Shown one piece after another: positions 1 to 20,227 of a stretch of 64,000 nt of DNA (the first letter of the stretch is position 1; every line of letters starts with the position of its first letter). This DNA comes from a virus, in the IMG/VR virus record IMGVR_UViG_3300027749_000049, positions 64,005 to 128,004 of that record; one strand, written 5' to 3'. A program made the position numbers and the translations under genes. The notes beneath the pieces are model-generated. The model made no database searches. It was not told the origin of the DNA and worked only from the letters and a program-made list of their open reading frames with translations.

Positions 1-569
1 TTAAGGTTGAAGCCTTTACCCTTAATTAATTTAATAAAATTTGAAATTTCAGTAGCAATACTGGCAGCATTTTTCCAACTGGTAATTAGATTAGATAATG
101 CAGTTTTTGCAGTAGTTCCTATGTTTGCAAATTTTTGGTCAGCTGGATTAATTGCTGAAATTGTAGCAGCTGCTGCCGGAATTGCATTAACTAATGATTC
201 AATATTTGAAATATAGTTATATTTTGATGCACCAGTTGTTGTTGTTTTACCACCAGCAATAAAGCCGCCTATCCAAAAATACATACTTTTAGCAGAATTT
301 GCTTTATCTTGGGCTGCAGCACCTCCAGTTTTTACTAAACTTTTCCATAGACTAAGATCAGCACCGCCGCGTTTCCACCATTCCGTTACTGACTTGTAAT
401 TAGGTAAGGCTTTTGTTGCTTCGTCATCGTTTGCAATTAATAGTTCGTAAAGTCCATTAAGGTCTTGATTCTTGGCCATTTGCTGAATAGTTGCTTGGTC
501 AACCGCTTCATTTAGCGATAGTGATTCAAGTAGCCAATTAGTATAGCTTTTAATTATTTGATTCTTCAT
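1..569 (-). CDS. Partial late protein with capsid-targeting-like N-terminus (MKNQIIKSYTNWLLES), runs off the window
   Basis: Manual translation from ATG at 569, open to the window edge; late-promoter-like GATAAATA at 600-607 (minus). Confidence 0.75.
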   Translation of the reverse strand, partial: MKNQIIKSYTNWLLESLSLNEAVDQATIQQMAKNQDLNGLYELLIANDDEATKALPNYKSVTEWWKRGGADLSLWKSLVKTGGAAAQDKANSAKSMYFWIGGFIAGGKTTTTGASKYNYISNIESLVNAIPAAAATISAINPADQKFANIGTTAKTALSNLITSWKNAASIATEISNFIKLIKGKGFNL

Positions 570-634
570 TATATTATAGAGTAATTATTTTCTAGATATT
601 ATTTATCTTTTGTACTATTTGATACTTACTGGTT

Positions 635-961
635 TTAGTCGGCAAGATCATTAACTATAATATATTCAAGCCAGCCCATATCGTATACAGTTTCACCATT
701 ATATAGATCATCCATAAATCTAGACCATTCATCTTCAGTACGACGGTCAATGAATTTATCAATAATTTGGCCAGTTCTCTCTTTTAGTTTGCGAATTGCG
801 GCATTAATCTCAGGATCGCTACCCCATTCATCTAATACCTTTTGGTATCTTTTGTCAAACGACTCAGGCTCGACAATTCCCAATTCCCTAAGTCTTGCTA
901 GGTTAGCCTCATTGTCTGATTCCTGGATCAAGTATTGCTTAAATAGTTTGATTTGTTTCAT
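635..961 (-). CDS. Putative head-internal protein (CTS-like N-terminus, NLARLRELGI motif)
   Basis: MKQIKLFKQYLIQE start; GATAAATA at 982-989 (minus). Confidence 0.7.
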   Translation of the reverse strand: MKQIKLFKQYLIQESDNEANLARLRELGIVEPESFDKRYQKVLDEWGSDPEINAAIRKLKERTGQIIDKFIDRRTEDEWSRFMDDLYNGETVYDMGWLEYIIVNDLAD

Positions 962-5670: not shown

Positions 5671-5773
5671 ACTCGGCCGGCTCGGTCTCCCTAGTCCCAG
5701 TTGTTAATAACTTTATTTTTCCGTGTCAAAAATTATACTTATATTTGTATTAACCAATCTAAACCAACCAAAC

Positions 5774-5986
5774 ATGACAGAAGAACAATCGCTAATTTTC
5801 AGCCAGGTGTTAGACACCAATTGGCAAGTTAAAGAACTAATGGACGCCAACAAATGGCTCGAGTCTTTTGAGAAAGTAAAAGAGTTAAATGCCTTAAAGC
5901 AGAAACTTAAAGAGTCAATGGGCGCGGCCGCGTACGATAAATTTATTACTACTGGCCAGAAAATGTTTGCCTCAAGTCAAGATTAA
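5774..5986 (+). CDS. Early hypothetical protein
   Basis: ATG after promoter cassette and A/C-rich leader. Confidence 0.7.
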   Translation: MTEEQSLIFSQVLDTNWQVKELMDANKWLESFEKVKELNALKQKLKESMGAAAYDKFITTGQKMFASSQD

Positions 5987-6009
5987 TTAACCCTTAACCA
6001 AACTTAACC

Positions 6010-6195
6010 ATGAAGAAGAAAATCAAATCATTTATCGAACGATTAGCCGGTCTTGACCAGACAGCCGGAACCCCAGTAAACTTGGAATTTGGCGGCGGTC
6101 CACGACTACAGAGCACAGTGTTACCGGATGAGACCCTAGGCTTCAACGAGTTTTGGGAAAGGGTATATAAGCTCAACGGTCAAAAGACTCCCTAG
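6010..6195 (+). CDS. Early hypothetical protein
   Basis: ORF with A/C-rich leader. Confidence 0.6.
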   Translation: MKKKIKSFIERLAGLDQTAGTPVNLEFGGGPRLQSTVLPDETLGFNEFWERVYKLNGQKTP

Positions 6196-6247
6196 TCCCA
6201 GTGTTATACCTAATTAATTATTAATCAACCCATAAAACAAATCAACT

Positions 6248-6556
6248 ATGCAAGAATACAAATTAGAACTTGGAGAAGACGAATATCAAGTAACACTTGA
6301 GTTTGGTAAATACCATGGAAACGGAAGAACTGCAATTACTGTTGTAGATGCAACGTTCGGTGAAGACCTTCTAGTAGCTACGGTAAATATACCGGAAGCA
6401 AGTTTGGAAGAAGGAGAAACTGTAATAAAAGATTATTCAGAGAACGAAGGAATCCTAAAGTTCTTAGTCGAGAATAAGATCGTTAGTAAACCAGTCAGAA
6501 CCGTAAGCACAGGTTTTGTACAATGTCAGGTGGTTAAATTATTAATTAATCCTTAA
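6248..6556 (+). CDS. DUF4313-like phage protein
   Basis: ATVNIPE...IKDYSENEGILKFLVENKIV...STGFV pattern. Confidence 0.6.
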   Translation: MQEYKLELGEDEYQVTLEFGKYHGNGRTAITVVDATFGEDLLVATVNIPEASLEEGETVIKDYSENEGILKFLVENKIVSKPVRTVSTGFVQCQVVKLLINP

Positions 6557-6560
6557 GCCT

Positions 6561-6932
6561 ATGAAGAGTATCAAAGTTCGATTTAATTTAGGAGCCGGTA
6601 AAAACTTTATGAAATGGAAGATTGAAAGACCGGACGGTAATGTATCATACCACTCGCCAAAGGAGGTTCAACTCGTAATGGCAGGTTGCGTGTTAAAAAA
6701 TCAAAGGTCCACTGCACTTAAAATATTTCAAGGAGCAAATAAAACTGTCTGCTCTTGGATACTATGTGAGAGCATAGAAATTAGGGTACCAACGATTTCA
6801 AAGATAAACGAACTAGATCGGGTTTCTTATAATCCAAGAGTAACACCCAATTGGATCTTTCAAGGTTCGGTTGCGGATGGAACCCGATTTAATAATTTGG
6901 TAAGCTTAGATAATAAAGTTTATAATTGTTAA
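6561..6932 (+). CDS. Hypothetical phage protein
   Basis: Full ORF in operon. Confidence 0.7.
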   Translation: MKSIKVRFNLGAGKNFMKWKIERPDGNVSYHSPKEVQLVMAGCVLKNQRSTALKIFQGANKTVCSWILCESIEIRVPTISKINELDRVSYNPRVTPNWIFQGSVADGTRFNNLVSLDNKVYNC

Positions 6933-7002
6933 TAACTTTATTTTCAGGTCTCAAACCCTTTTGTTATATTTACAATCTAAACCCCTAAAAACCAAACCAA
7001 TC

Positions 7003-7248
7003 ATGGCAAAAAAAGAATTCACAGTAAAACAAGGGCTAGCAGTCCAAGCCGATAACATGGCGTTCTGGAAAAAACTCTTAAAGAAGAAACACTATGCAAC
7101 ATTAGAAGAAGTTGTTGCTACACGAAATAGAGAGATCAAAGCTCGAGACGGTTATGAGGTCTATCGCGGTTCAGATATAAGTTGCGCAGTGCAGAACTTG
7201 TTCTATATTTCTGGAGAGTGTGACTCATTAATTCCAGTGGAAGACTAA
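7003..7248 (+). CDS. Early hypothetical protein
   Basis: ATG after promoter cassette. Confidence 0.7.
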   Translation: MAKKEFTVKQGLAVQADNMAFWKKLLKKKHYATLEEVVATRNREIKARDGYEVYRGSDISCAVQNLFYISGECDSLIPVED

Positions 7249-7483
7249 GGTACAAGTAATCCTACATTATAAAAAGCGCGGCCAGTCAGCTGCGCTTTTT
7301 TGGTATAGTATAATTATTATTAAAGACCAAAGAGATGAGACACGATAACCAGGGCAAGAGACCCGATCAACTAGACCTCTCTGCTAAATTAGCAAGTATA
7401 GCAGTAATAGGAATCTTAATTAGTGTAATTATTATTAAGATATTTGGGTAAGATAATATTATAACCAACTAGATATAAAGGAT

Positions 7484-7759
7484 ATGGAAGCACGGGATTT
7501 AGAAAAGAAAAAGATTATTACAGACTTAACTGACTTGGCTCAAAGTCTAGTAATTGGCGGAATCCGTAAAGACCAGCCGGATATTTTAATGTTAGGCAAG
7601 ACCTTGCTTGCAGCAATTGGAGCAGTAGAAACACCGGGCGGTGCAGACATTCTAGAAGGTGTACTTAGAGAAACAAGCAACCGGATAAGAGTAGAACAAG
7701 AGCCGGATAAGGTGCTAAAAGATTTACTTAGTGGGCTAGGAATCTCAACTAATGGGTAA
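7484..7759 (+). CDS. Hypothetical protein
   Basis: ORF track. Confidence 0.6.
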   Translation: MEARDLEKKKIITDLTDLAQSLVIGGIRKDQPDILMLGKTLLAAIGAVETPGGADILEGVLRETSNRIRVEQEPDKVLKDLLSGLGISTNG

Positions 7760-7869
7760 TATAACTTTAAATAAGAAACTAAATTTGATTGGTTTGGTTG
7801 ATCCAGGACTGGGAACCCTAACAGGTTCCCTTTCCAGGTATTAGGAGCCAAAGTTAAATACAAGATAAT

Positions 7870-8820
7870 ATGAAAAACATAAATTCAAAAGACGTCGTAA
7901 GAACCTTAGCCGAAAACAAAGAGAGTTACGATAAGTACGTAAACGAGATTGGAAAAAACAGACCCTTAAGCCGGGAAGAAGAGCTTGAAACCTTTGCACG
8001 AATCGCGGCTGGCGACGAGACCGCGGTAACCAAGATTATAAAACATAACCTGCTGTTTGTTGTAACGGTTGCAAAGAAATACCAGAACGTTGTGCAACAA
8101 GGTAGCTTGACTCTAGAAGACTTGATAAGCGAGGGTAATGTTGGGCTAGCCAAAGCGGTCCGCCGTTTTGACCCTGCAACCGGTAACAAATTTATATCAT
8201 ATGCAGTATGGTGGATCAAGCAGACAATAATAGAAGCAATCAACGATCACGTTAAGGTAATCCGAATTCCTTCTAATGCAAGATACACTATGAATACTCT
8301 TAATGAGATAGAACGAGAGCTTGAAGCAAAGCACGGCAGACCGGTTACGGTTGACGAATTATTGGAAGCAGCGGAGGTCCATCCAAAGATGGAAAATAAA
8401 ATGAAGCTCTCTACTCGAGTTATTGCAGACCTTAAAGGAGTAACTGGCTTTGAGAAAAGAATAGACGATCCAATTGGTCAGGATTCCGAAGAGAGCTTTG
8501 GAGACCGATTGGAATCTGCAGATAAAACAGATTCCGGACTATACAAGGAAGAAAGGTCTAGAGTAATAGAGGCAATGTTGGCTGGCCTAACGTCCGAAAC
8601 ACGGGAATGGATTAACTTGGTGTATGGGCTCAACGGCTCGGAACCTCAAAGTTATAAAAGCGTTGCTGACCGATTTGAGTGTAGTCCGGAAACTATTAGA
8701 CAGCGAGTTAACATGGCTCTCACTAGAATCCGCCGAACCCATAAAGATAAACTAAATTACTTTGACCCAAATTATACTGGAAGAGATTCACAGTATAAAA
8801 GAATTAGACCGACCTGGTAA
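7870..8820 (+). CDS. RNA polymerase sigma70 factor (RpoD/SigA-like)
   Basis: Region 1.2 PLSREEE; region 2 HNLLFVVTVAKKY...DLISEGNVGLAKAVRRFD...KFISYAVWWIKQ; region 4 HTH PETIRQRVNMAL. Confidence 0.9.
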   Translation: MKNINSKDVVRTLAENKESYDKYVNEIGKNRPLSREEELETFARIAAGDETAVTKIIKHNLLFVVTVAKKYQNVVQQGSLTLEDLISEGNVGLAKAVRRFDPATGNKFISYAVWWIKQTIIEAINDHVKVIRIPSNARYTMNTLNEIERELEAKHGRPVTVDELLEAAEVHPKMENKMKLSTRVIADLKGVTGFEKRIDDPIGQDSEESFGDRLESADKTDSGLYKEERSRVIEAMLAGLTSETREWINLVYGLNGSEPQSYKSVADRFECSPETIRQRVNMALTRIRRTHKDKLNYFDPNYTGRDSQYKRIRPTW

Positions 8821-8916
8821 TTGTTAATAACTTTTGAAAAAAGATTCCCTAAACATTTTTTTGTTTGGGGATTTTTTGTTATATTTGTACTCTAAACCAA
8901 TCTAAAAAAATCAATT

Positions 8917-9150
8917 ATGAAACAGGAAGTTAAGATTAAAAAAGTTTACGCGGCCGGCATTATAAATCCAAAAGACCAATGGTCTTGGCAAGGTACGGTG
9001 GTTGCCCATTCAATAGCGGAAGCTAAAAGATTATTAACCTCATATAAAAAAGAGGATGGTATGCAGGGTCGTTGCGAGGTAATCGATATGGATGGACCTC
9101 ATTATACAAATCGCCCAATCGGCGTAAGCGATTCTACTCAATTATTTTAA
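8917..9150 (+). CDS. Early hypothetical protein
   Basis: Follows promoter cassette. Confidence 0.7.
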   Translation: MKQEVKIKKVYAAGIINPKDQWSWQGTVVAHSIAEAKRLLTSYKKEDGMQGRCEVIDMDGPHYTNRPIGVSDSTQLF

Positions 9151-9400
9151 ATCAATCTAAACCCCAAATCTCATGATAAAGAAAATTATAATCGCAGCAA
9201 TCGTAATACTGTTGATACTTAAGTTTAGACTCGTTGGAGAAATTATTATTTCAGTCCTAAATTTATTGGAGTCAATTGTACGGACCCTAATCTCAATTTA
9301 ATTGTTAATAACTATTTTTAAAATAAATGAAAATAAATTTTTTAGTGTCAAACCTATTTGTTATATTTGTATTCTAAACCAATCTAAAAAAACTAAAATC

Positions 9401-9574
9401 ATGTCAGACAGAAAAATCGCCTTTACAATATTAGAAGAACTTCGCGCAGCGGGTTTTTCAGACACCCAAATCCTAGAAGATATTTTAGGTAATCAATTAT
9501 CCGGATCTGAAGCAGCAGAGGCAATCACTGCAACAGCTGAAGCATTTAACGAGTACATGGATTTTAATTCTTAA
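9401..9574 (+). CDS. Early hypothetical protein
   Basis: Follows promoter cassette. Confidence 0.65.
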   Translation: MSDRKIAFTILEELRAAGFSDTQILEDILGNQLSGSEAAEAITATAEAFNEYMDFNS

Positions 9575-9608
9575 TCAATTTAACCAACCCCTAAAAACCT
9601 TATCAATT

Positions 9609-10004
9609 ATGGAAATCAAATTAACCACAACCGAATCAGAAGAAATATTTCATAACGCTCTTTGCAACGGGCTAGGCTACGTGCAAGGATATGGAATCGA
9701 ATTGGATTTCTTTAAGCAAGACTATGAACGAGCTTCTAGTGCCTTAAAGCAGGAAAATCCTGGAACCCAAATCTGTTACGAAGATGTTTTACTTAGACTC
9801 TTGAAAGACGGTAAAGAACTTACAATGGTCGATCACGAATGCGAAGGAGAATATACTCGTTCTATTTCTATCAAGGATGTCCACGAGCGAGTTTCTAAAA
9901 CTCCAATCAGACACTTGATGAATATGATAAATGAAGAAGACGATGCTGAAACTGCTGATGTAGTTTTACAGACAGTATTCTTTGAAGACGTAATATTCGG
10001 CTAG
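9609..10004 (+). CDS. Hypothetical phage protein
   Basis: C-terminal DAETADVVLQTVFFEDVIFG, a motif seen in phage early proteins. Confidence 0.75.
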   Translation: MEIKLTTTESEEIFHNALCNGLGYVQGYGIELDFFKQDYERASSALKQENPGTQICYEDVLLRLLKDGKELTMVDHECEGEYTRSISIKDVHERVSKTPIRHLMNMINEEDDAETADVVLQTVFFEDVIFG

Positions 10005-10128
10005 CCGGAACCGGCTTTGGCCGGTTCTCCCTAGTCCCAAATTGTTAATAACTTTATTTTTTAGTGTCAACTTAATTACTTATATTTGCTTTATCAATTA
10101 TTAATCAACCCTTAAAAACAAATCAATC

Positions 10129-10548
10129 ATGGCAACAAGAAGCAGAATCGCAATTGAAAATTCAGACAAGACAGTATCAAGTATTTACTGCCACAGTGAC
10201 GGCTACCCTGAAGGAGTCGGTCAAACCCTAATGTCTTTCTATCAAGACAGAACAAAAGTTGAAGAGCTAATCGCTCTTGGCGATCTTAGTATCTTGGGAG
10301 CCCGAACAGCCCCAACCCCAGGTACTCCGCATTCGTTTGATGGAGAACGAGAAAAAGGAGTAACAGTAGCCTACCACCGGGACCGAGGTGAAGATCTCCC
10401 TAGTCCCAGACTTGATGCCGGGTTAGCGGTATTCAACGAGTCAGACGTTGAACAATACGGATACGTATTTACTCTTGACGGAGAATGGTACATGGTAGAA
10501 AACGGTACCGATTTTAGAGAATTAGTACCACTATCTGAAATATTATAA
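10129..10548 (+). CDS. Conserved phage early protein
   Basis: MATRSRIAI...SIYCHSDGYPEGVG family motif. Confidence 0.8.
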   Translation: MATRSRIAIENSDKTVSSIYCHSDGYPEGVGQTLMSFYQDRTKVEELIALGDLSILGARTAPTPGTPHSFDGEREKGVTVAYHRDRGEDLPSPRLDAGLAVFNESDVEQYGYVFTLDGEWYMVENGTDFRELVPLSEIL

Positions 10549-10607
10549 AAATAAATTTTTTAGTGTCAAAATAATTAGTTATATTTACAATCTAAAACCA
10601 ATCAATC

Positions 10608-11336
10608 ATGAGCAATAAAAGATTTGAAACAGCAGCCGGTCTGCCACAGTATTTTAAAAGTTTAGATAGGCATTCTAAACCAATCAGTAAAGAAGAAGAG
10701 CATAATCTGGCCAGACGAATTCAGGCTGGAGACGAGACGGCGGTAGATATTTTAGTAACAGCCAATCTTAAGTTCGTTGTAACTCTTGCCAATAAGTTTA
10801 TTGGTATGGGCTTATCAATTGAAGACTTAATTCAAGAAGGAAATGCTGGTCTTATCGAAGCTGCTCGTAAGTTTACAGCAGATAAGAATGTAAAGTTTAT
10901 AACCTATGCCCAATTCTGGATTCGCAAAAGATTAAATCTTTCTCTTTGCGAGTATGGAAGAACAGTTAGGATTCCGGTAAATCAGGAATACGATCTATAC
11001 AAACGCAAGATGGCAGGTGAATCAATTAACCTTACTAATATTGCACTAGATCGCCCAATCGGCGAGGATGGAGACAATACGCTAGGTGATCTTATCTTAA
11101 GAACAGAAGCAGTTGATCCATTTGAATCACAGGAAACTACACAGTTTATTAATCGATTACTCTGCAAGTTAAAGGTAACCGATAGAGAAATTGTAGAATT
11201 ATTCTATGGTCTAGTAGGCGATGGCTTATCTACAAAAGAAATCGCTGCTCAAGTCGGTAAAACTCCAGCGGAAGTTAATCGTTCTCTTAAAGTTGCTAGA
11301 GCTCAAATGAGAAAGGAGGTTGTATGCAAACGCTAA
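10608..11336 (+). CDS. Second RNA polymerase sigma70 factor
   Basis: ANLKFVVTLANKF...EDLIQEGNAGLIEAARKF...KFITYAQFWIRK; region 4 HTH. Confidence 0.9.
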   Translation: MSNKRFETAAGLPQYFKSLDRHSKPISKEEEHNLARRIQAGDETAVDILVTANLKFVVTLANKFIGMGLSIEDLIQEGNAGLIEAARKFTADKNVKFITYAQFWIRKRLNLSLCEYGRTVRIPVNQEYDLYKRKMAGESINLTNIALDRPIGEDGDNTLGDLILRTEAVDPFESQETTQFINRLLCKLKVTDREIVELFYGLVGDGLSTKEIAAQVGKTPAEVNRSLKVARAQMRKEVVCKR

Positions 11337-11539
11337 CTCATGCAAGTACAATGGCCGAAATGGCGGTAGATATTTTATTCTCGGAAGGAGACCCATTCAG
11401 AGGTAAAGTAGACAGACTTAAATTATACGATGCAATTCGTCAAGCCACATTGAAGAAATTAGTTATTGAAGACCATGATATTCTAGATGAGGAAGAATTC
11501 CAGGAATGCCTAAAGGTTTCTAAAATAGAAAATTGTTAA
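11324..11539 (+). CDS. Hypothetical protein
   Basis: Overlaps the sigma stop codon. Confidence 0.6.
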   Translation: MQTLTHASTMAEMAVDILFSEGDPFRGKVDRLKLYDAIRQATLKKLVIEDHDILDEEEFQECLKVSKIENC

Positions 11540-12021
11540 TAACTTTTGAAAAATAAGTCCCCAACCATTTTTTTGTTTGGGGATTTTTTGTTATATTTGC
11601 TCTATATTAATCAATTAACCCCAATAGACAATGAAAAAGCCAAAGACTGCCCCAAAGAAATTACTCAAACAACTAGAGTATTTTAAACAAACTGCCGATT
11701 TCTTCCGAAATGCAACAGGAACCCAGAACGATTTGGATAATGCTGCACAATACGATCGATGGGCTGATGGTGTACAGAAACAAATAGATGATATTATTAA
11801 TTCTTAATCCAATATCCTATGAAAATCTTAAGCATTATAAATAATGAATTCGTAGAAATCCTATGGATTGACGATTCAGAAATAGAGTTAATTCCTATTC
11901 AAGAGTTTATTGATATCCATGGGGTTGAGAAGTTAGAAGCCTTTAAAAATAAGGCCTAATCTTTTGACCCCAATTAGGTATAATAATACTAGCAGAAATA
12001 GGAAAATAAATAATAGAAACC

Positions 12022-12285
12022 ATGGCAGACTTAAATCAATACTCGCGAATCTTATTGGATCTTATCCATCTTAGACAGACTGATTACGATGCCTTCATGA
12101 ATAGACTTTATGAAGCCCTAACCGGCGAGTTTAAAGATGCTCTTTACGATAAGAGCCCAATTGAAGAGAAATCTCAAGCAGTTTGGAGCATGATAAAACA
12201 TTTTGAAAAACAGGAAGAATTTGAGAAATGCGCAAGTCTCAAGAAGATGATAGAAGAAATTGACCATAAACCCCTTAACAAATAA
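12022..12285 (+). CDS. Hypothetical protein with UVR-like motif
   Basis: FEKQEEFEKCASLKK. Confidence 0.65.
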   Translation: MADLNQYSRILLDLIHLRQTDYDAFMNRLYEALTGEFKDALYDKSPIEEKSQAVWSMIKHFEKQEEFEKCASLKKMIEEIDHKPLNK

Positions 12286-12356
12286 GACTATGTGTATACT
12301 CGCAGGAATCCTAGTAATTGTAGCACTCATTGCTCAATTTAAAATAAAAGACTAAT

Positions 12357-12656
12357 ATGGCAGCTTCATTAATTAAAATCGTAACCTCAACCTCAATTCG
12401 AGAGTTTACGCCAGCAGCAGTAGTAAAGATTGAATACCAGATTGGAGCAAGCAAACTAGATATTGTGTTGCACGGCTTGGTTGTTGTAACACTACAATTA
12501 CAGTCAGCAGCGGAAGCCTTAATCAAGCTAGGCCAGCTCGAGACTGCCATGAATTCTGGAACTGGGATTGCAACAATAACTGAGACGCCAACTGTTACAA
12601 CTACAACTGTTGCTCCAACAACTACCACTACTACATTAGGTTGGCCTCCCGGTTAA
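12357..12656 (+). CDS. Hypothetical protein with Thr-rich tail
   Basis: TPTVTTTTVAPTTTTTT. Confidence 0.6.
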   Translation: MAASLIKIVTSTSIREFTPAAVVKIEYQIGASKLDIVLHGLVVVTLQLQSAAEALIKLGQLETAMNSGTGIATITETPTVTTTTVAPTTTTTTLGWPPG

Positions 12657-12748
12657 TAACTTTGTTAATAACTTTTGGGAAATAAATTTTTTAGTGTCAA
12701 AAAGATTTGTTATATTTGTATTCTAAACCAATCTAAAAACAATCAACC

Positions 12749-13132
12749 ATGACAAAATTATTTTTAATTCGCTTCGGCCAAACTCCAAGTCCAATCGTAT
12801 CGCAAGCATTAGCTCCGCATATCGTTGGTAAAGCATCAGCACTTCCAATTCCTGGTGCAGTACTATCCATCTTCAATACTGAGTCATCAATAGAAGATGT
12901 GAGAGCATCCATTGAAGAAACTGGTGCATTCTTTATCTTAACGGATAATGCAGAATTAGTATTACCTCAACCACTAATGGCGGAAATTGAAAAGGTTTTC
13001 CCAAGTGGAGCTCAACCCGTAAAGGAGGATAAAACTTTAACGATGGATGATATCCTTGACCTAATAAGTCAAAATGGAATTGAGTCACTTACTCCATCTC
13101 AACTCCAAATCTTAAGATCCGGTACTGTATAA
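12749..13132 (+). CDS. Early protein with DUF6576-like C-terminus
   Basis: MDDILDLISQNGIESLTPSQLQIL. Confidence 0.6.
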   Translation: MTKLFLIRFGQTPSPIVSQALAPHIVGKASALPIPGAVLSIFNTESSIEDVRASIEETGAFFILTDNAELVLPQPLMAEIEKVFPSGAQPVKEDKTLTMDDILDLISQNGIESLTPSQLQILRSGTV

Positions 13133-13145
13133 TTAACTGAACACA

Positions 13146-13173
13146 AGACTCTCCTTAATGGAGAGTCTTTTTC
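13146..13173 (+). terminator. Intrinsic terminator
   Basis: AAGACTCTCC TTAAT GGAGAGTCTT TTT. Confidence 0.75.
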
Positions 13174-13204
13174 TCCGTGTTAAATAACCAAAAAGCACCT
13201 AATC

Positions 13205-13420
13205 ATGAATGAGATAGTAAGACTATACTTAGAACAAAACGGTACCGAAACCTGTATCAAAGACCCAGCCGAAATGATCAGACTCTTGAGTTCTGCAACG
13301 GATGATATAGACCTGGATTACCATGACCAGCGCGGACACGCCAAAGCCGGATCAAGTCGAGACCTAATTGGAAAGACTGTTAAGATCGGAGACCACGAAT
13401 TGGAAATACCTCAACACTAA
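13205..13420 (+). CDS. Hypothetical protein
   Basis: ORF track. Confidence 0.6.
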   Translation: MNEIVRLYLEQNGTETCIKDPAEMIRLLSSATDDIDLDYHDQRGHAKAGSSRDLIGKTVKIGDHELEIPQH

Positions 13421-13509
13421 ATTGTTAATAACTTTTCCCAAAATAATAGGACCCAGATTTTTTAGTTTGGGTTTTTTTTGGTATATTAGAATAAATAAAC
13501 AATAAAAAA

Positions 13510-13956
13510 ATGGTAAACCTAAAAAAATTATTAGTAATAATTGCAGCTTGGAATCAAGCAGATCAGGATGAATCTACTTTAGCTGAATTACAATCTTACT
13601 ATGCGGACAAAAATATCCAAGCTCTATCCTTGGAAGATCTGACAAGCCGTACGTCTTTCTTGCCTAATAGCCTTGTGATGACATGCGAAGATGATCCAAG
13701 AGATTCATGTTTTTATACAGAAGATGGAATTCATCTTACTCCAATAGTGATGATAGATGCAAATAGTCAAGAAGAAATAGATCCCAAAGAAGTTCTAACC
13801 GAAGAAGAAGCAGAAGACGAAGGTTACGAATACTACGACTTTGAAACGTTTATGGACCATTTCGAAGGATACGAAAACATACTACTAAACTTTAAAATTA
13901 CTAGAGTCAACAGTATTAAAGAAGGAACTGTACTTCGATTTGACGAATTTATCTAA
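13510..13956 (+). CDS. Acidic hypothetical protein
   Basis: Asp/Glu-rich ORF after promoter cassette. Confidence 0.7.
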   Translation: MVNLKKLLVIIAAWNQADQDESTLAELQSYYADKNIQALSLEDLTSRTSFLPNSLVMTCEDDPRDSCFYTEDGIHLTPIVMIDANSQEEIDPKEVLTEEEAEDEGYEYYDFETFMDHFEGYENILLNFKITRVNSIKEGTVLRFDEFI

Positions 13957-13975
13957 AAACAATTAATCTAGCTAC

Positions 13976-14011
13976 AAAAAGCGGTTCGGAAACGGGCCGC
14001 TTTTTTTTTTT
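13976..14011 (+). terminator. Intrinsic terminator
   Basis: AGCGGTTCG GAAA CGGGCCGCT plus long T tract. Confidence 0.8.
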
Positions 14012-14247
14012 GAAAATAATTGGAAAAAGTTTTTTACTGTCAAGTTTTTGTTTTATATTAGCTTTGTAATTAATTTTACTACGGTTCGCTGAACAAGCGC
14101 AGAGGGTAGACTCCGACCTACGACACTGTGTAAGTTGTTAACACACGATTGTTAATAACTTTATTTAAAAATAATTCACAAATAATTTTTTAGTGTCAAA
14201 CCTATTTGTTATATTTGCTCTATATTAATCAATTAAAAAAATCAACT

Positions 14248-14505
14248 ATGGCAAATTCAATGCAACCAATCAACGCTCAAATTCTTAGGTCAGAGTTAAA
14301 TCAGCGTATCGTAAAATTCTTTTTTGTAAAGAAAGACGGCAGCCTCAGAGAGGTACATGGTACAACCAAACTTGCGCACGTTCCTGCGGACAAACATCCA
14401 CAAGGAGTACGTGAAACCCCAGCCAGCGTGATCACCTTCTGGGATCTCTTAGCGGGCGATTGGCGCAGTGCTAAAGTAGAAACACAATTCTTTATTAACG
14501 ACTAA
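14248..14505 (+). CDS. SH3-fold (WYL_2/DUF2693-like) protein
   Basis: VKFFFVKKDGSLREVHGT...FWDLLAGDWRS. Confidence 0.75.
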   Translation: MANSMQPINAQILRSELNQRIVKFFFVKKDGSLREVHGTTKLAHVPADKHPQGVRETPASVITFWDLLAGDWRSAKVETQFFIND

Positions 14506-14524
14506 CCCCCTAAACCTAAATCAC

Positions 14525-14710
14525 ATGGCAACACAAGAAGCAATCAATGAAGCAATTGCCCAATGGGGCGAAGACGCAGTCTATCAAGCAATGGAAGTCG
14601 TAGCGATGTCAGATGCTGACGGAGCTTGGTCAATGTTCGAAGATATGGGCATGTTCGAATGCGCGGAAGTAGTAGAATTTCTTTACTTCGATGGTGCGGC
14701 TGACGACTAA
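14525..14710 (+). CDS. Small acidic protein
   Basis: ORF track. Confidence 0.6.
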   Translation: MATQEAINEAIAQWGEDAVYQAMEVVAMSDADGAWSMFEDMGMFECAEVVEFLYFDGAADD

Positions 14711-14764
14711 AGAATAAATAACTGTAGTACATTAGTAGTAATTAACCAATCAAAAATCAAACTT

Positions 14765-15895
14765 ATGCAAGAGAAAATCGGTAAAAAAGAAATCACAGTC
14801 AGAGACTTTTTCGAGAACCACCATAGTGGTCGAGTTCCTAACTTAACAGTACAACAGCTGTACACGCAGTTCATGACGCAAGGCTCTGATGCTACTGGTA
14901 TATCTTATGGCCTCTTCAATGGAGTAGTTAAGAAACTCCGCTTTGAGACCGGCGACTCCCTAGTCCCGGCTGCAGGTCAAAGTACAATAGCGCGCCCAAC
15001 CTCACAAGACCAGGCGGACTCCGTAGTAACAATAAGCGACGAGCCGGAGATCTTCGAGATTGGATCAATGCAATTCCCTGACTTCAAGAAGTTTACCACA
15101 GGTACAGTGTTTGACCAGTTAATGTCAGATCATGACGAAGAGGGCGGAGTGTTTGCAGGTACAGCCAATATAGTTATTGGAGAGTCAGGAGTTGGTAAGT
15201 CAACTATTACATTAGACCTCTTAGCTAAGATTAAACAGCAGCAACCGGATGCAAAGGTGCTCTATATCTCTAGTGAAATGACACGTAACGACTTGTATTT
15301 CTATTACAAGAAAATGCCAATCATTGAAACTATTCCTACTCTCTTGATTATGGATTACCTACTAGGTCGTTTTGACAGGACCTTGCAAAAAGCAATCAAC
15401 GGCGACTATGACGTAATCTTAATTGACTCTCATCAGGATATTATTGTTAAACTAAAAGATGTCTTAGGCTGGAAGAGTACAAGAGCTGAGACTTGGTTAA
15501 CCAATCTTATTATTGAAGCAGCAGACAAGAAAGGAAAAGCAATCTTTGCAATTCAACACATGACCAAAGGCGGTCAGTATGTTGGTTCAACCTATCTAAA
15601 GCATGCGACAACAAGTATGATGGAAATCCGCAAGGACGAGACTGGTCGCCGATACGCTGAGTTTACAAAGAACCGTCGTGGAGGTAGTCTGGTAGGTAAG
15701 CGCCTTTATTACTCCCTAGTAAACGGAGAGGTTCAATGGGACAAAGACTCATGGAGACAAGAGAATGTTGTTGCTGAACTTGCAGGTCAGGAGTCAGAAC
15801 GCCGCCACCAGTTAGAGGGTCAGTTTAACGATCTTTTCTTGAGTGTTAAACGTCCAAGAACTGAAGAGGAAACTGCTGCTACTGAAGCCGAGTAG
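14765..15895 (+). CDS. RadA/Sms-like RecA-fold ATPase
   Basis: Walker A GESGVGKS, LYISSEM, Walker B ILIDS, HMTKGG, KNRRG. Confidence 0.8.
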   Translation: MQEKIGKKEITVRDFFENHHSGRVPNLTVQQLYTQFMTQGSDATGISYGLFNGVVKKLRFETGDSLVPAAGQSTIARPTSQDQADSVVTISDEPEIFEIGSMQFPDFKKFTTGTVFDQLMSDHDEEGGVFAGTANIVIGESGVGKSTITLDLLAKIKQQQPDAKVLYISSEMTRNDLYFYYKKMPIIETIPTLLIMDYLLGRFDRTLQKAINGDYDVILIDSHQDIIVKLKDVLGWKSTRAETWLTNLIIEAADKKGKAIFAIQHMTKGGQYVGSTYLKHATTSMMEIRKDETGRRYAEFTKNRRGGSLVGKRLYYSLVNGEVQWDKDSWRQENVVAELAGQESERRHQLEGQFNDLFLSVKRPRTEEETAATEAE

Positions 15896-15950
15896 TCGGA
15901 AACTAGTGCACAATTTTTAGTATATTAACCTTATAAAATAAAAAATAGAC

Positions 15951-17069
15951 ATGATAAACCAATCGCAATTCAACCAAGCAAAACAGGAACTTTCAGGATT
16001 AGATCCGTTAGTTAAGAGAGTAAAGCTCTCCGATATTATCTTAAATGATAATTCAATTAAACACAATTCAATTGAGATTGAAGGCTCAAGAGTTCCAGTC
16101 TCAGACAAGTTCTTCAACCGTCTAGGCCAAATGGTAAACCTTAATACTGGGTTAATGGGCAAAATGTCTAAGGTCGGGGACAAGGAGATCGAGACCAAGT
16201 TGTTGCAGTCAGTAAAAGCCTATTCTGAAACCCGCGATGGTGGTAAAGAGTTCTTATTGGTAGGCGACGGTGCAAGCCATCAGGTTACTAATATCGTGCG
16301 AGCTGACAAATACCACAGGTTATCTAACGATACCTTATTCGCGACTGCTGACACTATCCTAAATGAAATTCCGGATATGCATATCGAGTCTATTGACCGT
16401 ACTGGTCCAGGTGGAGTAAGTATTAATCTTATCCATGGCAGCCAAGTTGGTTACGAGAAAATTGGTAAGGACGAGGTATTCCGTTTTGGGATCTCCCTAG
16501 TAAATGGTGCTACATCAAGTCGAGTTGACGATTTCTTCTACCGCCTTGCATGCGCAAACGGTGCAGTTGCTCGTAACTTAAATACAGCATTTGAATTTGG
16601 TAACGGCGACGAAGCCTTCCGTAAATTGCTAGAGCAAATGAGCGGTTGGGCAAAAGCAGGTTTTGTACCACGTACTTTCCAAGACAGACTGGAACGTGCA
16701 ATGGTAACCAAAGCAAGCTATTCGGAAGTTGAAAAAGCCTTGTACTCAGTAACTGGTGCAATCGGCGAAAAGGATTTCGATATGGCTGCCAAGTTGGTAA
16801 AGGGTGCAGAACAACAGTTCTTCCCAGAATACGATGCGGCTACTAAACGTATCTTCCGTGCCGGCCACAATCCACTAAGCTTAACTGATGCTCAAAAGAA
16901 GTTTATCAAAACTGATGCTACGGTTTGGGATGTTGTTAACGAATTAACCTGGATTGGAAGTCATGATACAATCTTTGACCTTAAGAATTCAAAAGGTTTT
17001 AAAGTAGCAGGTGGTAATCTATTCGCTAAGACATGGGATCTAGAACATGCAGGTTTAGCGCAAATCTAA
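15951..17069 (+). CDS. DUF932-like protein
   Basis: GISLVNG...FYRLACANGAV and TVWDVVNELT motifs. Confidence 0.55.
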   Translation: MINQSQFNQAKQELSGLDPLVKRVKLSDIILNDNSIKHNSIEIEGSRVPVSDKFFNRLGQMVNLNTGLMGKMSKVGDKEIETKLLQSVKAYSETRDGGKEFLLVGDGASHQVTNIVRADKYHRLSNDTLFATADTILNEIPDMHIESIDRTGPGGVSINLIHGSQVGYEKIGKDEVFRFGISLVNGATSSRVDDFFYRLACANGAVARNLNTAFEFGNGDEAFRKLLEQMSGWAKAGFVPRTFQDRLERAMVTKASYSEVEKALYSVTGAIGEKDFDMAAKLVKGAEQQFFPEYDAATKRIFRAGHNPLSLTDAQKKFIKTDATVWDVVNELTWIGSHDTIFDLKNSKGFKVAGGNLFAKTWDLEHAGLAQI

Positions 17070-17092
17070 TCCTTATATAATACACACTCTAA

Positions 17093-17122
17093 GAAGGGGT
17101 CCTCAACAGGGACCCCTTTTTT
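17093..17122. terminator. Intrinsic terminator between convergent genes
   Basis: AGGGGTCCT CAACA GGGACCCCT TTTT. Confidence 0.75.
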
Positions 17123-17126
17123 GGGT

Positions 17127-17261
17127 TTAACCTTGACCTACATTGCGCTTAACATAGTACTTACTGTTCTTGCTTACTGATGTCTTCTTTTTAGAGTGGA
17201 CACCAGGTCTGCGACGCTTGGCTTTGGCTACCCGATTGGTTGTGGTTGACTGTTTGGCCAT
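17127..17261 (-). CDS. Small basic protein (44 aa), not in the ORF track
   Basis: MAKQSTTTNRVAKAKRRRPGVHSKKKTSVSKNSKYYVKRNVGQG; convergent on the terminator. Confidence 0.6.
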   Translation of the reverse strand: MAKQSTTTNRVAKAKRRRPGVHSKKKTSVSKNSKYYVKRNVGQG

Positions 17262-17393
17262 TAGTTAAATCTATATTTTTATACTATTTAATCCCAAAAA
17301 CCGTGCAGTCCCGGCGAGGACCCTGGAATCGGCCCCAGGCCATGGGGATTTTCGTCACACAGTACTATCCTCGCCCCGAATATAAATAACCAT

Positions 17394-17795
17394 ATGAAAG
17401 AAGCTTCTACATCAGACATTAGTTTTGTCCGGTTCTGTATTGCAGAATTAGGGATCGAAACAAGTCCCAATATCAGGATAGGCGATGACCACCGTAAGGC
17501 GCAAGAGCACCGAGCTATGGGTTACTATAGTCCAGCAGATAACTTGATCTGGGTGTTACGCGGTAGTCGGGTACCTGCAGACTGGTATCGAACCCTAGCC
17601 CATGAATTGGTCCACTGGCGCCAGCGCGAGCTAGGCCAAGGTTTGGACGGTGCAGACGGTAGCGAAATCGAGAATGAAGCTAACTCTAAAGCAGCAGTAC
17701 TCTTACGGGAATGGGGTAGAAGAGATGAATTAATTTATGTCTTACCTAATGAGGCGCAACCGGCTGACCCCCAAGTAGAGCCTGCGACCCCATAA
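17394..17795 (+). CDS. Zn metallopeptidase-like protein (HExxH)
   Basis: RTLAHELVHWRQ...ENEAN; TATAAATA at 17381-17388. Confidence 0.75.
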   Translation: MKEASTSDISFVRFCIAELGIETSPNIRIGDDHRKAQEHRAMGYYSPADNLIWVLRGSRVPADWYRTLAHELVHWRQRELGQGLDGADGSEIENEANSKAAVLLREWGRRDELIYVLPNEAQPADPQVEPATP

Positions 17796-18411
17796 TCAGG
17801 TAGCTTAAGTCTTCCTTTAACTCTGCCCTGTATTCTTCCTGATACAGGGTTTTTTGTATAACATGCAGTTCAACACCGTGCCAGACCAGGAATCTCTCTA
17901 GAATCTCAGCACCCGCAAACCTGGCCAGCCTGTCCGGGGTCTCAACTATAACCATGCTTATCTGCTTGCGTAACACTAAGTCAAAGATCTTGTCTAGCCC
18001 AGACCTGCCGACTAGGCTACCAGCCTTACCGACCTCCGCAATTACCTGGTCTACCCTGATCCCGGCCGCCGTGCAGTAGGCTAGCACCCGGTCCTGCTGA
18101 GCCTGCAGCCGGGTTCGGGATGAGACGCCGGCCGCGCCCTGGTCCGGAATTCCCGCCGCCCGGCAGTAGACTACGACTTCCCTAGACTGGGGTAGTTTAC
18201 TCCCTAGTAGCTTCAAGAGGTCCTGCTTGTCGTAGTAGATCCGGCCGTTGATCTCGTTCTTCCAGTGTCTTAGGGTACCGGCTTTAACGTAGCGGTCTAG
18301 GGTCTTTAAGGAAATACCTAGGAATTCCGCGGCCCCCTTCTTGTACACGAGCTCGCCGGTTGGGAACTCGGTTAGGGGTCTAGAGTCTGGGGTCTGGGCT
18401 GGTTCCTGCAT
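17746..18411 (-). CDS. IS607 TnpA-like serine recombinase (MerR-type HTH plus resolvase domain), catalytic Ser apparently replaced
   Basis: AAEFLGISLKTLDRY HTH; YCRAAG where YARVS is expected; DRLARF; late promoter GATAAATA at 18417-18424 (minus). Confidence 0.8.
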   Translation of the reverse strand: MQEPAQTPDSRPLTEFPTGELVYKKGAAEFLGISLKTLDRYVKAGTLRHWKNEINGRIYYDKQDLLKLLGSKLPQSREVVVYCRAAGIPDQGAAGVSSRTRLQAQQDRVLAYCTAAGIRVDQVIAEVGKAGSLVGRSGLDKIFDLVLRKQISMVIVETPDRLARFAGAEILERFLVWHGVELHVIQKTLYQEEYRAELKEDLSYLIMGSQALLGGQPVAPH

Positions 18412-18549
18412 GGGGTTATTTATCTACTGCCCGGCCTGCCCGCTTGGACAGCCCCCGGCCCCGGGTCCAGCAGTGTCCATATACTTCTCGAGTCCGGGCC
18501 CCCTCTAGAGCCCGGGAGCCTGCTCGGGTCCGTGGAGGCCGCGGTCGCC

Positions 18550-18735
18550 GTACTCCCTAGTCCCCATGAATGCACAGCTTGTACCCTTTGGGCGGTGGCA
18601 AGCAGGGGTACTCCCTAGTCCCACGGGGCCGGGGTCAGGGCTGGGCTCGGCTGGCCTGGCAGGGGTACTCCCTAGTCCCGAGCCGGGCTGGCCTGGTTGG
18701 GTAGAGCCGGGCTGGCTGCAGGTACTCCCTAGTCC
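18550..18735 (+). repeat. Periodic array of four GTACTCCCTAGTCC copies
   Basis: Starts at 18550, 18608, 18665, 18722 (58, 57, 57 nt), with G-rich non-identical spacers. Confidence 0.9.
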
Positions 18736-18999
18736 TGGGTAACCAGGACATGGGCCTGCCCTAGACTTGGCTAGTCTAGTAGTCAGGGTCTATAGGATAG
18801 GGTTCTGAATAGGGTTGGGTATAGGGTTGGGTATACGGGTTATTTTTCTTTTTATGTATATAAGTAGACAGAGTCTTGCCTGGAGAGTTTCTTCTTAGAT
18901 TAGTATCTTTACTTAGAGTAGTAGGGCGCGCCTCTAAGCTTTGGGACGCAGGCATACCCACGGCCAGGACCCGGACCGATTGGGTATATTAGACTCAAT

Positions 19000-19086
19000 A
19001 GTCAGGTGGCTGAAATGGTAACAGCACAACGAAACTCTTAGGGTTGTTGGTCAAAACTTATAGGTTCGATTCCTGTCCTGATTACA
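19000..19086 (+). ncRNA. tRNA-like RNA 1 (non-canonical anticodon arm)
   Basis: Acceptor AGTCAGG/CCTGATT-ACA, D arm GCTGAAATGGTAACAGC, T arm ATAGG-TTCGATT-CCTGT. Confidence 0.75.
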
Positions 19087-19160
19087 AATAAATGAGTTCA
19101 CAATTTGCCGATGCACTTCGCCATGCGGATTCACAATGGGCTAATGTACCTCATTTATAC

Positions 19161-19239
19161 AGTCAGGTAGCTAAATGGGTAAAGCGGTTCCTCTTCACAA
19201 AGATGGAATGATGCAGGTTCGAGTCCTGTCCTGACTACA
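19161..19239 (+). ncRNA. tRNA-like RNA 2
   Basis: Acceptor AGTCAGG/CCTGACT-ACA, T arm GCAGG-TTCGAGT-CCTGT, extended bulged central hairpin. Confidence 0.75.
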
Positions 19240-19331
19240 CAGATTAATGGTATAATAACCCTATAAAAGTAGAAACAACGTCTCCCCAGTTTCTTGTTCC
19301 GTGCACGGAAAGGATTTATAAGGAGCAATTT

Positions 19332-19438
19332 AGTCAGGTGGCGGAATGGTAGACGCTAAGAAAGAGATAAACTTTGTACTTCACATGATGGTACACTAAA
19401 GCATTATCTCGTATAGGTTCGAATCCTATCCTGACTAC
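19332..19438 (+). ncRNA. tRNA-like RNA 3 (Leu-type D arm, long irregular helix)
   Basis: AGTCAGG-TGGCGGAATGGTAGACGC...ATAGG-TTCGAAT-CCTAT-CCTGACT-ACA; helix GAGATAA/TTATCTC. Confidence 0.8.
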
Positions 19439-19440
19439 AA

Positions 19441-19518
19441 ATAGATGTATTGATCGTCTAGCGGTAAGACATATCGTAAGATAAGACGCAGGTTCAAATC
19501 CTGGGTATTTGCATCTAT
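19441..19518 (+). ncRNA. tRNA-like RNA 4 (degenerate)
   Basis: ATAGATGTA/TGCATCTAT closing stem, D arm GTC-TAGCGGTAA-GAC, TATC-GTAA-GATA hairpin, CAGG-TTCAAAT-CCTG. Confidence 0.6.
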
Positions 19519-19523
19519 TAAAT

Positions 19524-19607
19524 AGTCAGGCGGCGAGCATGGTGGCACCTACCCAAGTGGCTTGAGCTCGTTAATGGTCCATACCCGTTCGAATCGGGTC
19601 CTGACTA
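19524..19607 (+). ncRNA. tRNA-like RNA 5
   Basis: AGTCAGG/CCTGACT-A acceptor, T arm ACCCG-TTCGAAT-CGGGT. Confidence 0.7.
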
Positions 19608-19621
19608 CTAATATAAAAATA

Positions 19622-19858
19622 ATGAAAGCAATACTTGAATTTGACTTAACTGATCCGGCTGATGTTGAAGCCCACCTACGTTGTGTACAGTCCTTGGAGC
19701 TGGTGCTCTTTGTGCTCAAGATAGAAGCCGACCTCAGGGCTAAACTAAAGCACGGCGAGCTCAGCGAATGCGAATGGCGAACCCTTGACAAGTTCAGGGA
19801 AGAGTTTTATGCAGAGCTCAATGGGCACGGTATTAACCTTGACAAGCTGATTAGTTAG
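19622..19858 (+). CDS. Hypothetical phage protein
   Basis: MKAILEFDL start. Confidence 0.7.
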   Translation: MKAILEFDLTDPADVEAHLRCVQSLELVLFVLKIEADLRAKLKHGELSECEWRTLDKFREEFYAELNGHGINLDKLIS

Positions 19859-19915
19859 AGCCCAATTGGTGTATATTAGCCTAGATAAATAACTTTACAA
19901 AAAAAGAATTAGAAA

Positions 19916-20227
19916 ATGAAACAACCAATAATTAAAAGATTTGGGCAATTTGTAAACGAAAACCACATGGGCGATATGAATGATATGGGTCGTGAAGATG
20001 TTGCATATACTTATGAAGTTGGTGTAGCTGTTCAGGAGATTGGTAAACGTGAAACCTCTAAACTAATAGATGAATTTGAAAAAGCCGGTATTGAGATATT
20101 AGATAGAACTGACGGTTTATATAATGGCGATGAGGACTGGACGTTAAGAGGTACCAAGTCAAATTTAGAAAGGACGCTTCTTTCATGGGGTTTTGATTTT
20201 AATGAAGATAATCTGGTAAACGACTAG
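19916..20227 (+). CDS. Putative head-internal protein (CTS-like)
   Basis: MKQPIIKRFGQFVNEN; GATAAATA at 19884. Confidence 0.7.
   Translation: MKQPIIKRFGQFVNENHMGDMNDMGREDVAYTYEVGVAVQEIGKRETSKLIDEFEKAGIEILDRTDGLYNGDEDWTLRGTKSNLERTLLSWGFDFNEDNLVND

Follow-up and report, generated by a model that had tools for sequence, protein, structure and literature searches.

In this study, we analysed a stretch of 64,000 nucleotides of viral DNA (hereafter the window), which covers positions 64,005 to 128,004 of the IMG/VR virus record IMGVR_UViG_3300027749_000049, and we found that a gene descended from the IS607 transposase TnpA lies just beside an array of a 9-base DNA word, CTCCCTAGT, that points in one direction only. 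The TnpA-like gene (17746..18411, minus strand) encodes a 221-aa protein with an HTH_17 helix-turn-helix (HTH) and a resolvase domain and with Ala at the nucleophile position, as judged from Pfam, the PDB, the fold and the alignment. With confidence and doubt about evenly matched, we believe that this is a domesticated IS607-TnpA-type protein which is now a putative site-specific DNA binder reading the word. The record (G000) is 128,004 bp long, with a CheckV completeness of 46%, and its second half makes up the window. Relatives of about 253-271 kb exist, and the group is one of large uncultured freshwater phages. Two of these relatives, G001 (270 kb, 100% complete) and G002 (253 kb), served as nearly whole genomes (94-100% complete).

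The Pfam search of the window protein placed HTH_17 at residues 27-69 (E 7.1e-09) and Resolvase at residues 99-189 (E 9.5e-12). The Resolvase match begins only at profile position 13, so the nucleophile-bearing stretch of the profile is unmatched. An N-terminal MerR-like HTH followed by a serine-recombinase domain is the domain order of IS607 TnpA, and this feature is present. The closest sequences in the PDB were catalytic domains from TnpA proteins of the IS607 family (3lhf at 1.7e-10, then 3ilx, 6dgc, 3lhk and 6dgb), the best NCBIfam family was the IS607 transposase equivalog NF033518 (96.1 bits, under the cut-off of 110), and in PHROGs the protein matched phrog_6620, 'transposase' (3.6e-27). 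The AlphaFold2 (AF2) model, made with 31 sequences, had a mean predicted local distance difference test (pLDDT) value of 79, and its best Foldseek matches were 3lhk, 6dgc and 3lhf, with target template modelling (TM) scores of 0.75-0.77. The HTH part of the model fitted the DNA complexes of BldC (6ama; target TM 0.75 over 55 residues) and RacA (5i44) in Foldseek. Pfam, the PDB and Foldseek agree on the MerR-type HTH and serine-resolvase domain of IS607 TnpA, which an earlier reading made from the letters alone (the sequence-only reading) had assigned to this gene. The homodimer prediction for residues 76-221 scored 0.13 and 0.10 against a mark of 0.42, which is no evidence either way. As a separate observation, the alignment shows mosaicism of the HTH and the ex-catalytic domain among close relatives, with two HTH variants pairing with two C-terminal variants. 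The HTH variants read ..LDRYVKAGTLRHW.. and ..LEGYV.xG..NKW.., and both occur with the same DNA word. Between the window protein and that of locus L002, dN was 0.163 in the HTH and 0.023 in the catalytic domain.

The search for homologs covered 1.84 billion representative proteins and gave 368 matches at E <= 0.001, among which the significance falls sharply after the window family, from about 1e-44 to 1e-23. The 82 relatives of the window protein (41-95% identity) and the window protein itself make 83 aligned rows, of which 79 are full length (Y82, R84 and R161 present); the four fragment rows were dropped from the nucleophile counts. P0086, a 4,625-aa highly repetitive protein (5.2e-54) with 33 stretches matching residues 28-117, was set aside and kept out of the alignments, as it looks like a repeat or low-complexity artefact.

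The motifs YCRAAG, GAAGVSSR and PDRLARF are all present in the window protein. Canonical TnpAs read Y-[AC]-R-V-S-S followed by ..Q..L.RQ in an alignment of 48 sequences, which were drawn from the best 150 of the 368 matches (the window protein, ten family representatives and P0091-P0130 minus the fragments P0093, P0116 and P0120). In the full-length rows of the window family, the two residues after the conserved R84 were AA in 63 rows, SA in 10, AS in 4, TA in 1 and TR in 1, and a Ser two residues after the Arg, the canonical nucleophile place, was found in only 4 of the 79. The loss of the nucleophile, which the sequence-only reading had seen in YCRAAG standing for YARVS, is a matter of the whole family, and the window protein has Ala there. 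The insertion (GAAGVSSR) claimed after the motif was also confirmed, since the window family has 8-9 residues more than canonical TnpAs in the loop that joins beta1 (YCR) to helix A. Around the missing Ser, the pocket is kept: Y82 in 80 of the 83 rows, R84, D160, R161 and R164 in 81, and R101 and Q105 in 82. We take R84, D160, R161 and R164 to be the equivalents of resolvase R8, D67, R68 and R71. Because the serine nucleophile is gone, the protein cannot, by the established serine-recombinase mechanism, make the covalent DNA break that transposition needs.

It could be argued that the protein still recombines DNA by Ser97, Ser98 or another residue and works as an invertase, resolvase or transposase on direct repeats. 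The window protein does have Ser97 and Ser98 near the pocket in sequence, and the invariant R84, D160, R161 and R164 would suit such an activity. In the AF2 model, a 12-residue loop separates strand beta1 (78-85) from helix A (98-116), and the VSS that had been proposed for modelling as a source of the active-site Ser (V96-S97-S98) caps the N-terminus of helix A and varies within the family. Confidence in the modelled loop is low, with pLDDT under 50 at residues 93-95. Of the 83 rows, 45 have Ser, 16 Gly and 15 Ala at position 97, and 48 have Ala, 21 Ser and 12 Val at position 98. No Ser was found in positions 95-99 in 26 of the 79 full-length rows, nor anywhere in positions 85-100 in 17 of them, despite the same synteny and the same word. 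Recombination between direct repeats would delete essential early genes, yet the positions of the copies are conserved between relatives; the single copy of the gene, its fixed synteny and the score under the IS607 cut-off also argue against an active enzyme, which we find hardly credible. The sequencing-run data (24 runs) were contigs only, which cannot show absence, starts, ends or strand; their contig tables list no joint deleting or inverting the gene or the array, and contigs are uninformative on excision.

In a quick maximum-likelihood tree of the 48 rows, the 22 Ser-bearing canonical rows formed one clade (Shimodaira-Hasegawa-like approximate likelihood-ratio test, SH-aLRT, 97). The window family fell within a 14-row clade (support 95) in which 13 rows are without Ser, and a further 12-row clade (support 97) had nine rows without Ser and three with R-V-S-G. 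As Ser is missing across clades, the loss of the nucleophile is old and wide and is no quirk of the window phage. Five pairs gave dN/dS ratios of 0.09-0.27, for the HTH as well as for the ex-catalytic domain, and the TnpA-like gene is under purifying selection in both domains, with no decay.

The TnpA-like gene is not mobile. It is single-copy in G000, G001 and G002, and it stands among the same neighbours in 11 of the 11 related loci examined, in agreement with the claim that it is domesticated. The TnpB domains PF07282 and PF01385 were not found in the 128-kb record or in the two 94-100% complete relatives, with controls positive in 8 of 14 genomes, and the claim that there is no tnpB held in all three records. 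Compared with IS607-family TnpA proteins (IS607, IS1535, ISC1926 and ISC1904), the phage protein has the same domain order, the best sequence and fold matches and the same pocket residues, and it differs by the missing Ser, the loop longer by 8-9 residues and the score under the NCBIfam cut-off; the phage gene differs by its single copy, its fixed synteny and the absence of tnpB. The protein descends from IS607 TnpA but falls outside the family in three membership features, namely the nucleophile, the curated cut-off and mobility.

The second part of the finding is the word. There are 12 copies of CTCCCTAGT in the window, all on the plus strand, against 0.28 expected, and none of 100 shuffles reached 12. 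The 128-kb record contains no other copy of the word on either strand, and the 12 cover 13 kb (5687-18733). Four of them form the array (18553..18733, plus strand; starts 18553, 18611, 18668 and 18725, spacing 58, 57 and 57), which sits in an island of 65-70% G+C just upstream of the TnpA-like gene; on the strand of the gene, these copies lie at -150, -208, -265 and -322 from the ATG. One copy (18200..18208, plus strand) is inside the TnpA-like gene, antisense, over codons 68-71, which encode the family-invariant LLGS. The other seven exact copies are dispersed between and inside genes of the early block (5687..16501, plus strand; starts 5687, 6188, 10027, 10396, 14956, 15712 and 16493). Outside the array, seven of the eight exact copies are co-directional with early-gene transcription, and the remaining one is the antisense copy within the TnpA-like gene. 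A one-mismatch search added only the variant word CTCCGTAGT (15019, plus strand) to the segment, and the other four one-mismatch matches were scattered.

The same confinement was found in the relatives. All copies are forward in both genomes: 10 in G001 (0 reverse), which fall within 8.2 kb of its 270 kb, and 13 in G002 (0 reverse), which fall within 11 kb of its 253 kb, while the reversed-word control gave 0 and 1, respectively. In all 18 gene-bearing viral loci, the word occurred on one strand only (stated as the strand of the gene), with 1-5 phased copies upstream of the gene and further copies downstream, and 16 of the 18 also had the in-gene copy. A comparison of 81 instances, drawn from 10 distinct loci, showed K-K-K next to the core on one side and T-(A/C) on the opposite side, with variable sequence further out. 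In the reverse search, 23 viral stretches had two copies 46-51 nt apart and 17 of these also hold the gene. Of the remaining array stretches, L023 and L033 are on gene-bearing contigs, L021, L030 and L038 are too short to tell, and L041 is without the gene.

A second Ser-less clade (L043, L059 and L060), with 30-38% identity to the window family, carries the variant ACTACGGAG. At L043, whose protein is 38% identical to that of the window, there are seven ACTACGGAGTCC-like words (three upstream, three in the gene and one downstream), and L060 has five copies of the variant word. At four distinct phage-contig loci of Ser-bearing homologs, which were used as controls (L062, L063, L065 and L073; the near-copies L064 and L066-L072 were left out), a clustered word was not found, and the commonest 9-mers had at most 4 copies and were scattered. 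The sequence-only reading had taken the adjacent and dispersed word sites as candidate targets of the protein for genome organisation, packaging initiation or late shut-off of the early region; the linkage of gene and word (CTCCCTAGT/ACTAGGGAG) proved tight and deep, but no one of these purposes was singled out. It had also proposed to see whether homologs in related phages lack Ser and tnpB and sit beside arrays. Loss of Ser and adjacency to the array are family-wide, and two relatives are without tnpB, but L041 shows an array without the gene.

Several features of the coding sequence suggest that the word is kept for its own sake. Three copies in neighbour genes encode Ser-Leu-Val by TCC-CTA, and the copy at 10396 encodes Leu-Pro-Ser in another frame. 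The codons that the word imposes are rare in the long open reading frames (ORFs) of the window, where TCC makes up 5.9% of Ser, CTA 20% of Leu and GGG 6.6% of Gly. In relatives, the word is exact despite differing synonymous sites in its flanks. L018 and L019, the most distant members of the family, have a second copy 57 bp past the first, which lies over the ex-catalytic loop in frame 2 and encodes VLGS, and in L043 and L060 of the second Ser-less clade, ACTACGGAG lies over the same loop in frame 0 and encodes TTES. The word occupies the former nucleophile codons in two lineages and in different reading frames. Read from codons and alignments, these patterns show a word under selection at the DNA level. 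We speculated that this selection may be so strong that coding sequence has been overwritten, including, in two frames, the ex-active-site loop of the presumed reader of the word.

Other identities of the word and the array were also considered. The word does not behave as a promoter, as it stands at no fixed distance from starts, lies inside ORFs and is inverted in L059. The minus-strand sigma-70-like hits beside two copies are the reverse reading of a recurring plus-strand early-promoter box. An RNA element at the array found no support, as Rfam gave no match in 17000-20000 beyond tRNA-like genes and the array lies behind a plus-strand terminator-like hairpin (17825-17850). An R-loop or G-quadruplex origin in the island found no support either, with a skew of -0.17 to +0.01 in the 380 nt upstream in 11 loci and a G4-type run in 1 of the 11.

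The promoter boxes bear on the time at which the protein would be made. The TnpA-like gene carries a ATAAATAA box (18416..18423, minus strand), a late-type promoter core common to the capsid-cargo genes, 4 nt before its ATG; on the minus strand, GATAAATA lies 5 nt before the ATG. ATAAATA stands at this place in 9 of 10 distinct loci, and L008 has a variant. The ATAAATAA box occurs 26 times in the window on both strands, and 20 of these lie within 45 nt upstream of a same-strand ATG of an ORF of at least 80 aa, a zone that makes up only 3.2% of strand positions. Of 12 capsid-cargo genes, 9 have the box in front of them. Given this placement and the sharing with capsid-cargo genes, 'late-type promoter' is well founded as a class label, and in this sense the phage late promoter claimed by the sequence-only reading 5 nt before the ATG was borne out. 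From the box we infer that the TnpA-like gene is probably expressed late. Genes of the early block carry a T-run, GTGTCAA and a TTATATTTG-type box. The RNA-library contigs X23 and X24 cover early genes at 12.6-17.1 kb, contigs being uninformative on expression; almost none lie on 17.1-18.9 kb (bin 17719-18019 had a depth of 1.6 in X24), a region in which contigs cannot show absence.

Our preferred picture of how such a protein would act is as follows. The protein retains the fold of a recombinase with its Arg/Asp pocket, as well as a winged, MerR-like HTH, and it would be unable to break DNA covalently. Its HTH would read the asymmetric word ACTAGGGAG(T) in the way that IS1535 TnpA reads four 9-bp direct repeats, and molecules would begin to assemble at the array ahead of the gene, with its 57-58-bp phasing. 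The dead catalytic and oligomerisation domain, if it still dimerises, could then link co-oriented copies across the adjacent early segment of 8-13 kb. The outcome would be a late, direction-sensitive nucleoprotein structure that silences the early block or insulates it from the late genes, and that also regulates its own gene. Late silencing or insulation of the early segment plus autoregulation is, in our analysis, the most likely outcome, and the same complex may serve in replication, partition or packaging.

Some observations weigh against the protein as reader of the word. We infer the binding from co-location and from the precedent of IS1535 TnpA, and co-location is the only link between protein and word. 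The invariant Arg/Asp pocket is not obviously something that a pure DNA binder would need. In IS1535, the motifs lie about one helical turn apart, whereas the phage repeats are 57-58 bp apart with further copies over 8-13 kb. In the second Ser-less clade, the spacings are 68, 169, 122 and 339, and the 57-58-bp phasing is not kept. The six copies at L059 are all inverted relative to the gene and the downstream ORF, which counts against a role that depends on transcriptional direction. The word differs by one base between the two Ser-less clades, whose HTHs are about 30-38% identical, and it is also the same for the two HTH variants; as no covariation of HTH and word is seen, a more conserved factor could be the real reader. 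L041 (4,471 bp) retains the array, a copy at the distance normally seen and the genes for the peptidase, the 372-aa protein and the ATPase, but another ORF takes the place of the TnpA-like gene. The replacement ORF (379-783, minus strand of L041) is an unrelated, G+C-rich orphan of 134 aa on the strand opposite to that of the gene, and it also contains the word; no Pfam family was found for it, nor any relative in the study loci or viral contigs, and its Atlas model was of low confidence.

These points lead to the explanation that another conserved factor, such as a phage sigma factor or early-block regulator, a host protein or a DNA translocase, reads the word, and that the TnpA-like gene merely adjoins it and has another task, for example regulation of itself or its neighbours. 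We consider this rather unlikely. Besides the lack of covariation and the array at L041, it would explain why the word is more conserved than the protein, being exact at 44-95% protein identity and one base off at 30-38%, and two sigma-factor genes do lie inside the word-bearing segment. It fits less well with the copy inside the gene in nearly all gene-bearing loci and in the catalytic-loop codons of two lineages, with the presence of arrays directly beside the gene in both Ser-less clades and the absence of such a word from Ser-bearing homologs on phage contigs, and with the varying distance of the word from gene starts. As a weak further point against it, TL-x-RY in the recognition-helix region is common to both Ser-less clades, compared with TL-R-R-W in canonical TnpAs.

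Direct repeats in front of, inside and behind the gene of their presumed binder also recall an iteron-type replication initiator or a centromere-binding partition protein, for which the array and the in-gene copy would be iterons or a centromere and the neighbouring ATPase a recruited motor. In lambda, comparably, the origin lies within the O gene, and in P1, repA is flanked by iterons. The P-loop ATPase, which has DnaB/RadA-like matches, recurs as a neighbour throughout, its gene contains the word twice, and the HTH resembles that of RacA. Against this, the complete G001 shows neither an inflection of the cumulative GC skew nor a gene-strand switch at the array, the array sits in its G+C-rich island with no adjoining A+T-rich stretch noted, and a late-type promoter is a poor fit for an initiator that is needed early. 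The ATPase reached 49.8 bits, far under the curated helicase/RadA cut-off of 403. In our view, an initiator or partition protein is decidedly unlikely.

The late-type promoter counts in favour of a packaging function, in which the array would be a pac- or cos-like site and the protein a late site selector of the small-terminase kind. The lambda protein gpNu1 acts at cosB, and a MerR-like winged HTH with an oligomerising domain beside its own repeats resembles that arrangement. The large terminase gene, however, lies about 62-63 kb away in G000, and likewise in G001 read as a circle. Related records of about 270 kb are broken at different places with no sign of a fixed end at the array, and copies spread over 8-13 kb are unexpected for a pac site. 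This explanation is very improbable.

Returning to the protein as a putative reader of the word, the domestication of transposases is familiar from the DDE and tyrosine enzymes. We know of no relic of a serine transposase (IS607 TnpA) that is a non-catalytic DNA reader. In the sections of a review available to us, serine recombinases are discussed only as active invertases or resolvases (PMC8987985), and no published description of a Ser-less IS607 TnpA relic or of the word was found in the literature searched, which did not extend to supplementary files. The nearest precedent is IS1535, in which, according to the available text, TnpA binds four 9-bp direct repeats at the left end cooperatively, spreads and pairs the two ends (PMC6188088). 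In that account, the IS1535 repeats likewise lie before the gene (PMC6188088), and the phage repeats may be sites of the same kind.

The closest functional picture is that of the operators or 'stoperators' of L5-type repressors, which, in the part of the source available, are many asymmetric, orientation-dependent sites (PMC9283540); in both systems, many one-orientation words of about 9-13 bp lie near genes and have one HTH reader, which is presumed here. The protein fold is unrelated, and L5 sites are described in the same text as genome-wide (PMC9283540), whereas the phage word keeps to one segment of 8-13 kb. Also unlike the L5 system, many of the phage copies are inside coding sequence, at L059 all copies are inverted with respect to the genes, the phage gene has a late-type promoter, and no sign of lysogeny was seen in the phage parts examined. 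BldC, a small MerR-like protein, reportedly binds direct repeats as multimers. Phage D29 Gp36 is described, as far as the available text goes, as a MerR-like repressor binding GC-rich direct repeats (PMC12266134). Both share with the window protein a MerR-like HTH, and both are transcription regulators that form cooperative multimers on GC-rich or direct repeats, but they are without a recombinase-derived domain and their sites lie close together, unlike the phage copies, which are 57-58 bp apart or spread over kilobases. RacA reads ram sites that are dispersed near the origin in one chromosomal region. With its MerR-like HTH and scattered word, RacA (5i44; PRK13182) gives weak fold and sequence matches to the phage HTH, but the match covers only about 40-55 residues and the C-terminal part of RacA is unrelated.

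Domesticated transposases that read DNA are a known kind, and the putative reader here has an unusual DNA partner. We tentatively propose, as a possibility that we hold to be less than probable, that the relic and the one-directional word make up an undescribed DNA-level system of phages, which would serve as a polar mark, barrier or condensation device for the early segment of 8-13 kb. In jumbo phages, that segment may be the first to enter, and the system might be a frozen form of the end-binding machine of a transposase. If the protein reads the word, the pair would be simple, with one small protein and one site of 9-12 bp, and it could help to show how the early region is marked, silenced or organised in jumbo phages. 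The family would also be a natural experiment on a serine-recombinase pocket without its serine, and at least two deep clades among large freshwater phages have kept the relic, with the word confined to one segment of a genome of about 260 kb.

Among the neighbours, a 372-aa protein without a family match (15951..17069, plus strand), which holds one copy of the word, and a RadA/KaiC-like P-loop ATPase of 376 aa (14765..15895, plus strand), which holds two, were present in 11 of the 11 related loci examined. A zincin-like (HExxH) protein of 133 aa (17394..17795, plus strand), whose gene is convergent and lies behind a ATAAATAA box, was beside the TnpA-like gene in 9 of the 11. All three neighbour genes converge on the TnpA-like gene. 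The end of the zincin-like gene overlaps that of the TnpA-like gene by 50 nt (17746-17795), and the terminator-like hairpin for plus-strand transcription (17825-17850), which comes after the zincin-like gene, lies inside the 3' part of the minus-strand TnpA-like gene. At 17761-17806, a relative's contig in run X3 has 44 letters replaced by 442 others, which marks an indel hot spot between the convergent genes.

In the early block, the plus-strand box consists of a T-run, GTGTCAA, about 10-12 nt and then TTATATTT(G), and it was seen at 5700-5740, 10040-10090, 10555-10590 and 14030-14215. A near-palindromic TTGTTAATAAC box adjoins the word at 5700 and 10041 and stands alone at about 14150. The leaders of early genes are A-rich and without a Shine-Dalgarno-like sequence; a TAnnTTTG-like element and the lack of a Shine-Dalgarno sequence presumably suggest a Bacteroidota host. 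The two sigma-factor-like genes within the word-bearing early segment lie at 7870-8820 and 10608-11336 (plus strand) and match phrog_351 (E 8.9e-51 and 4.6e-45, respectively). ARAGORN found no tRNA cluster adjoining the array in the 8 related loci scanned. In the window, a tRNA-like cluster lies just past the array at 19000-19504 (plus strand), with Rfam tRNA matches at 19000, at 19332 and, weakly, at 19456, and ARAGORN reported a tRNA with anticodon tca at 19161-19238 as SeC, which is a possible reader of TGA.

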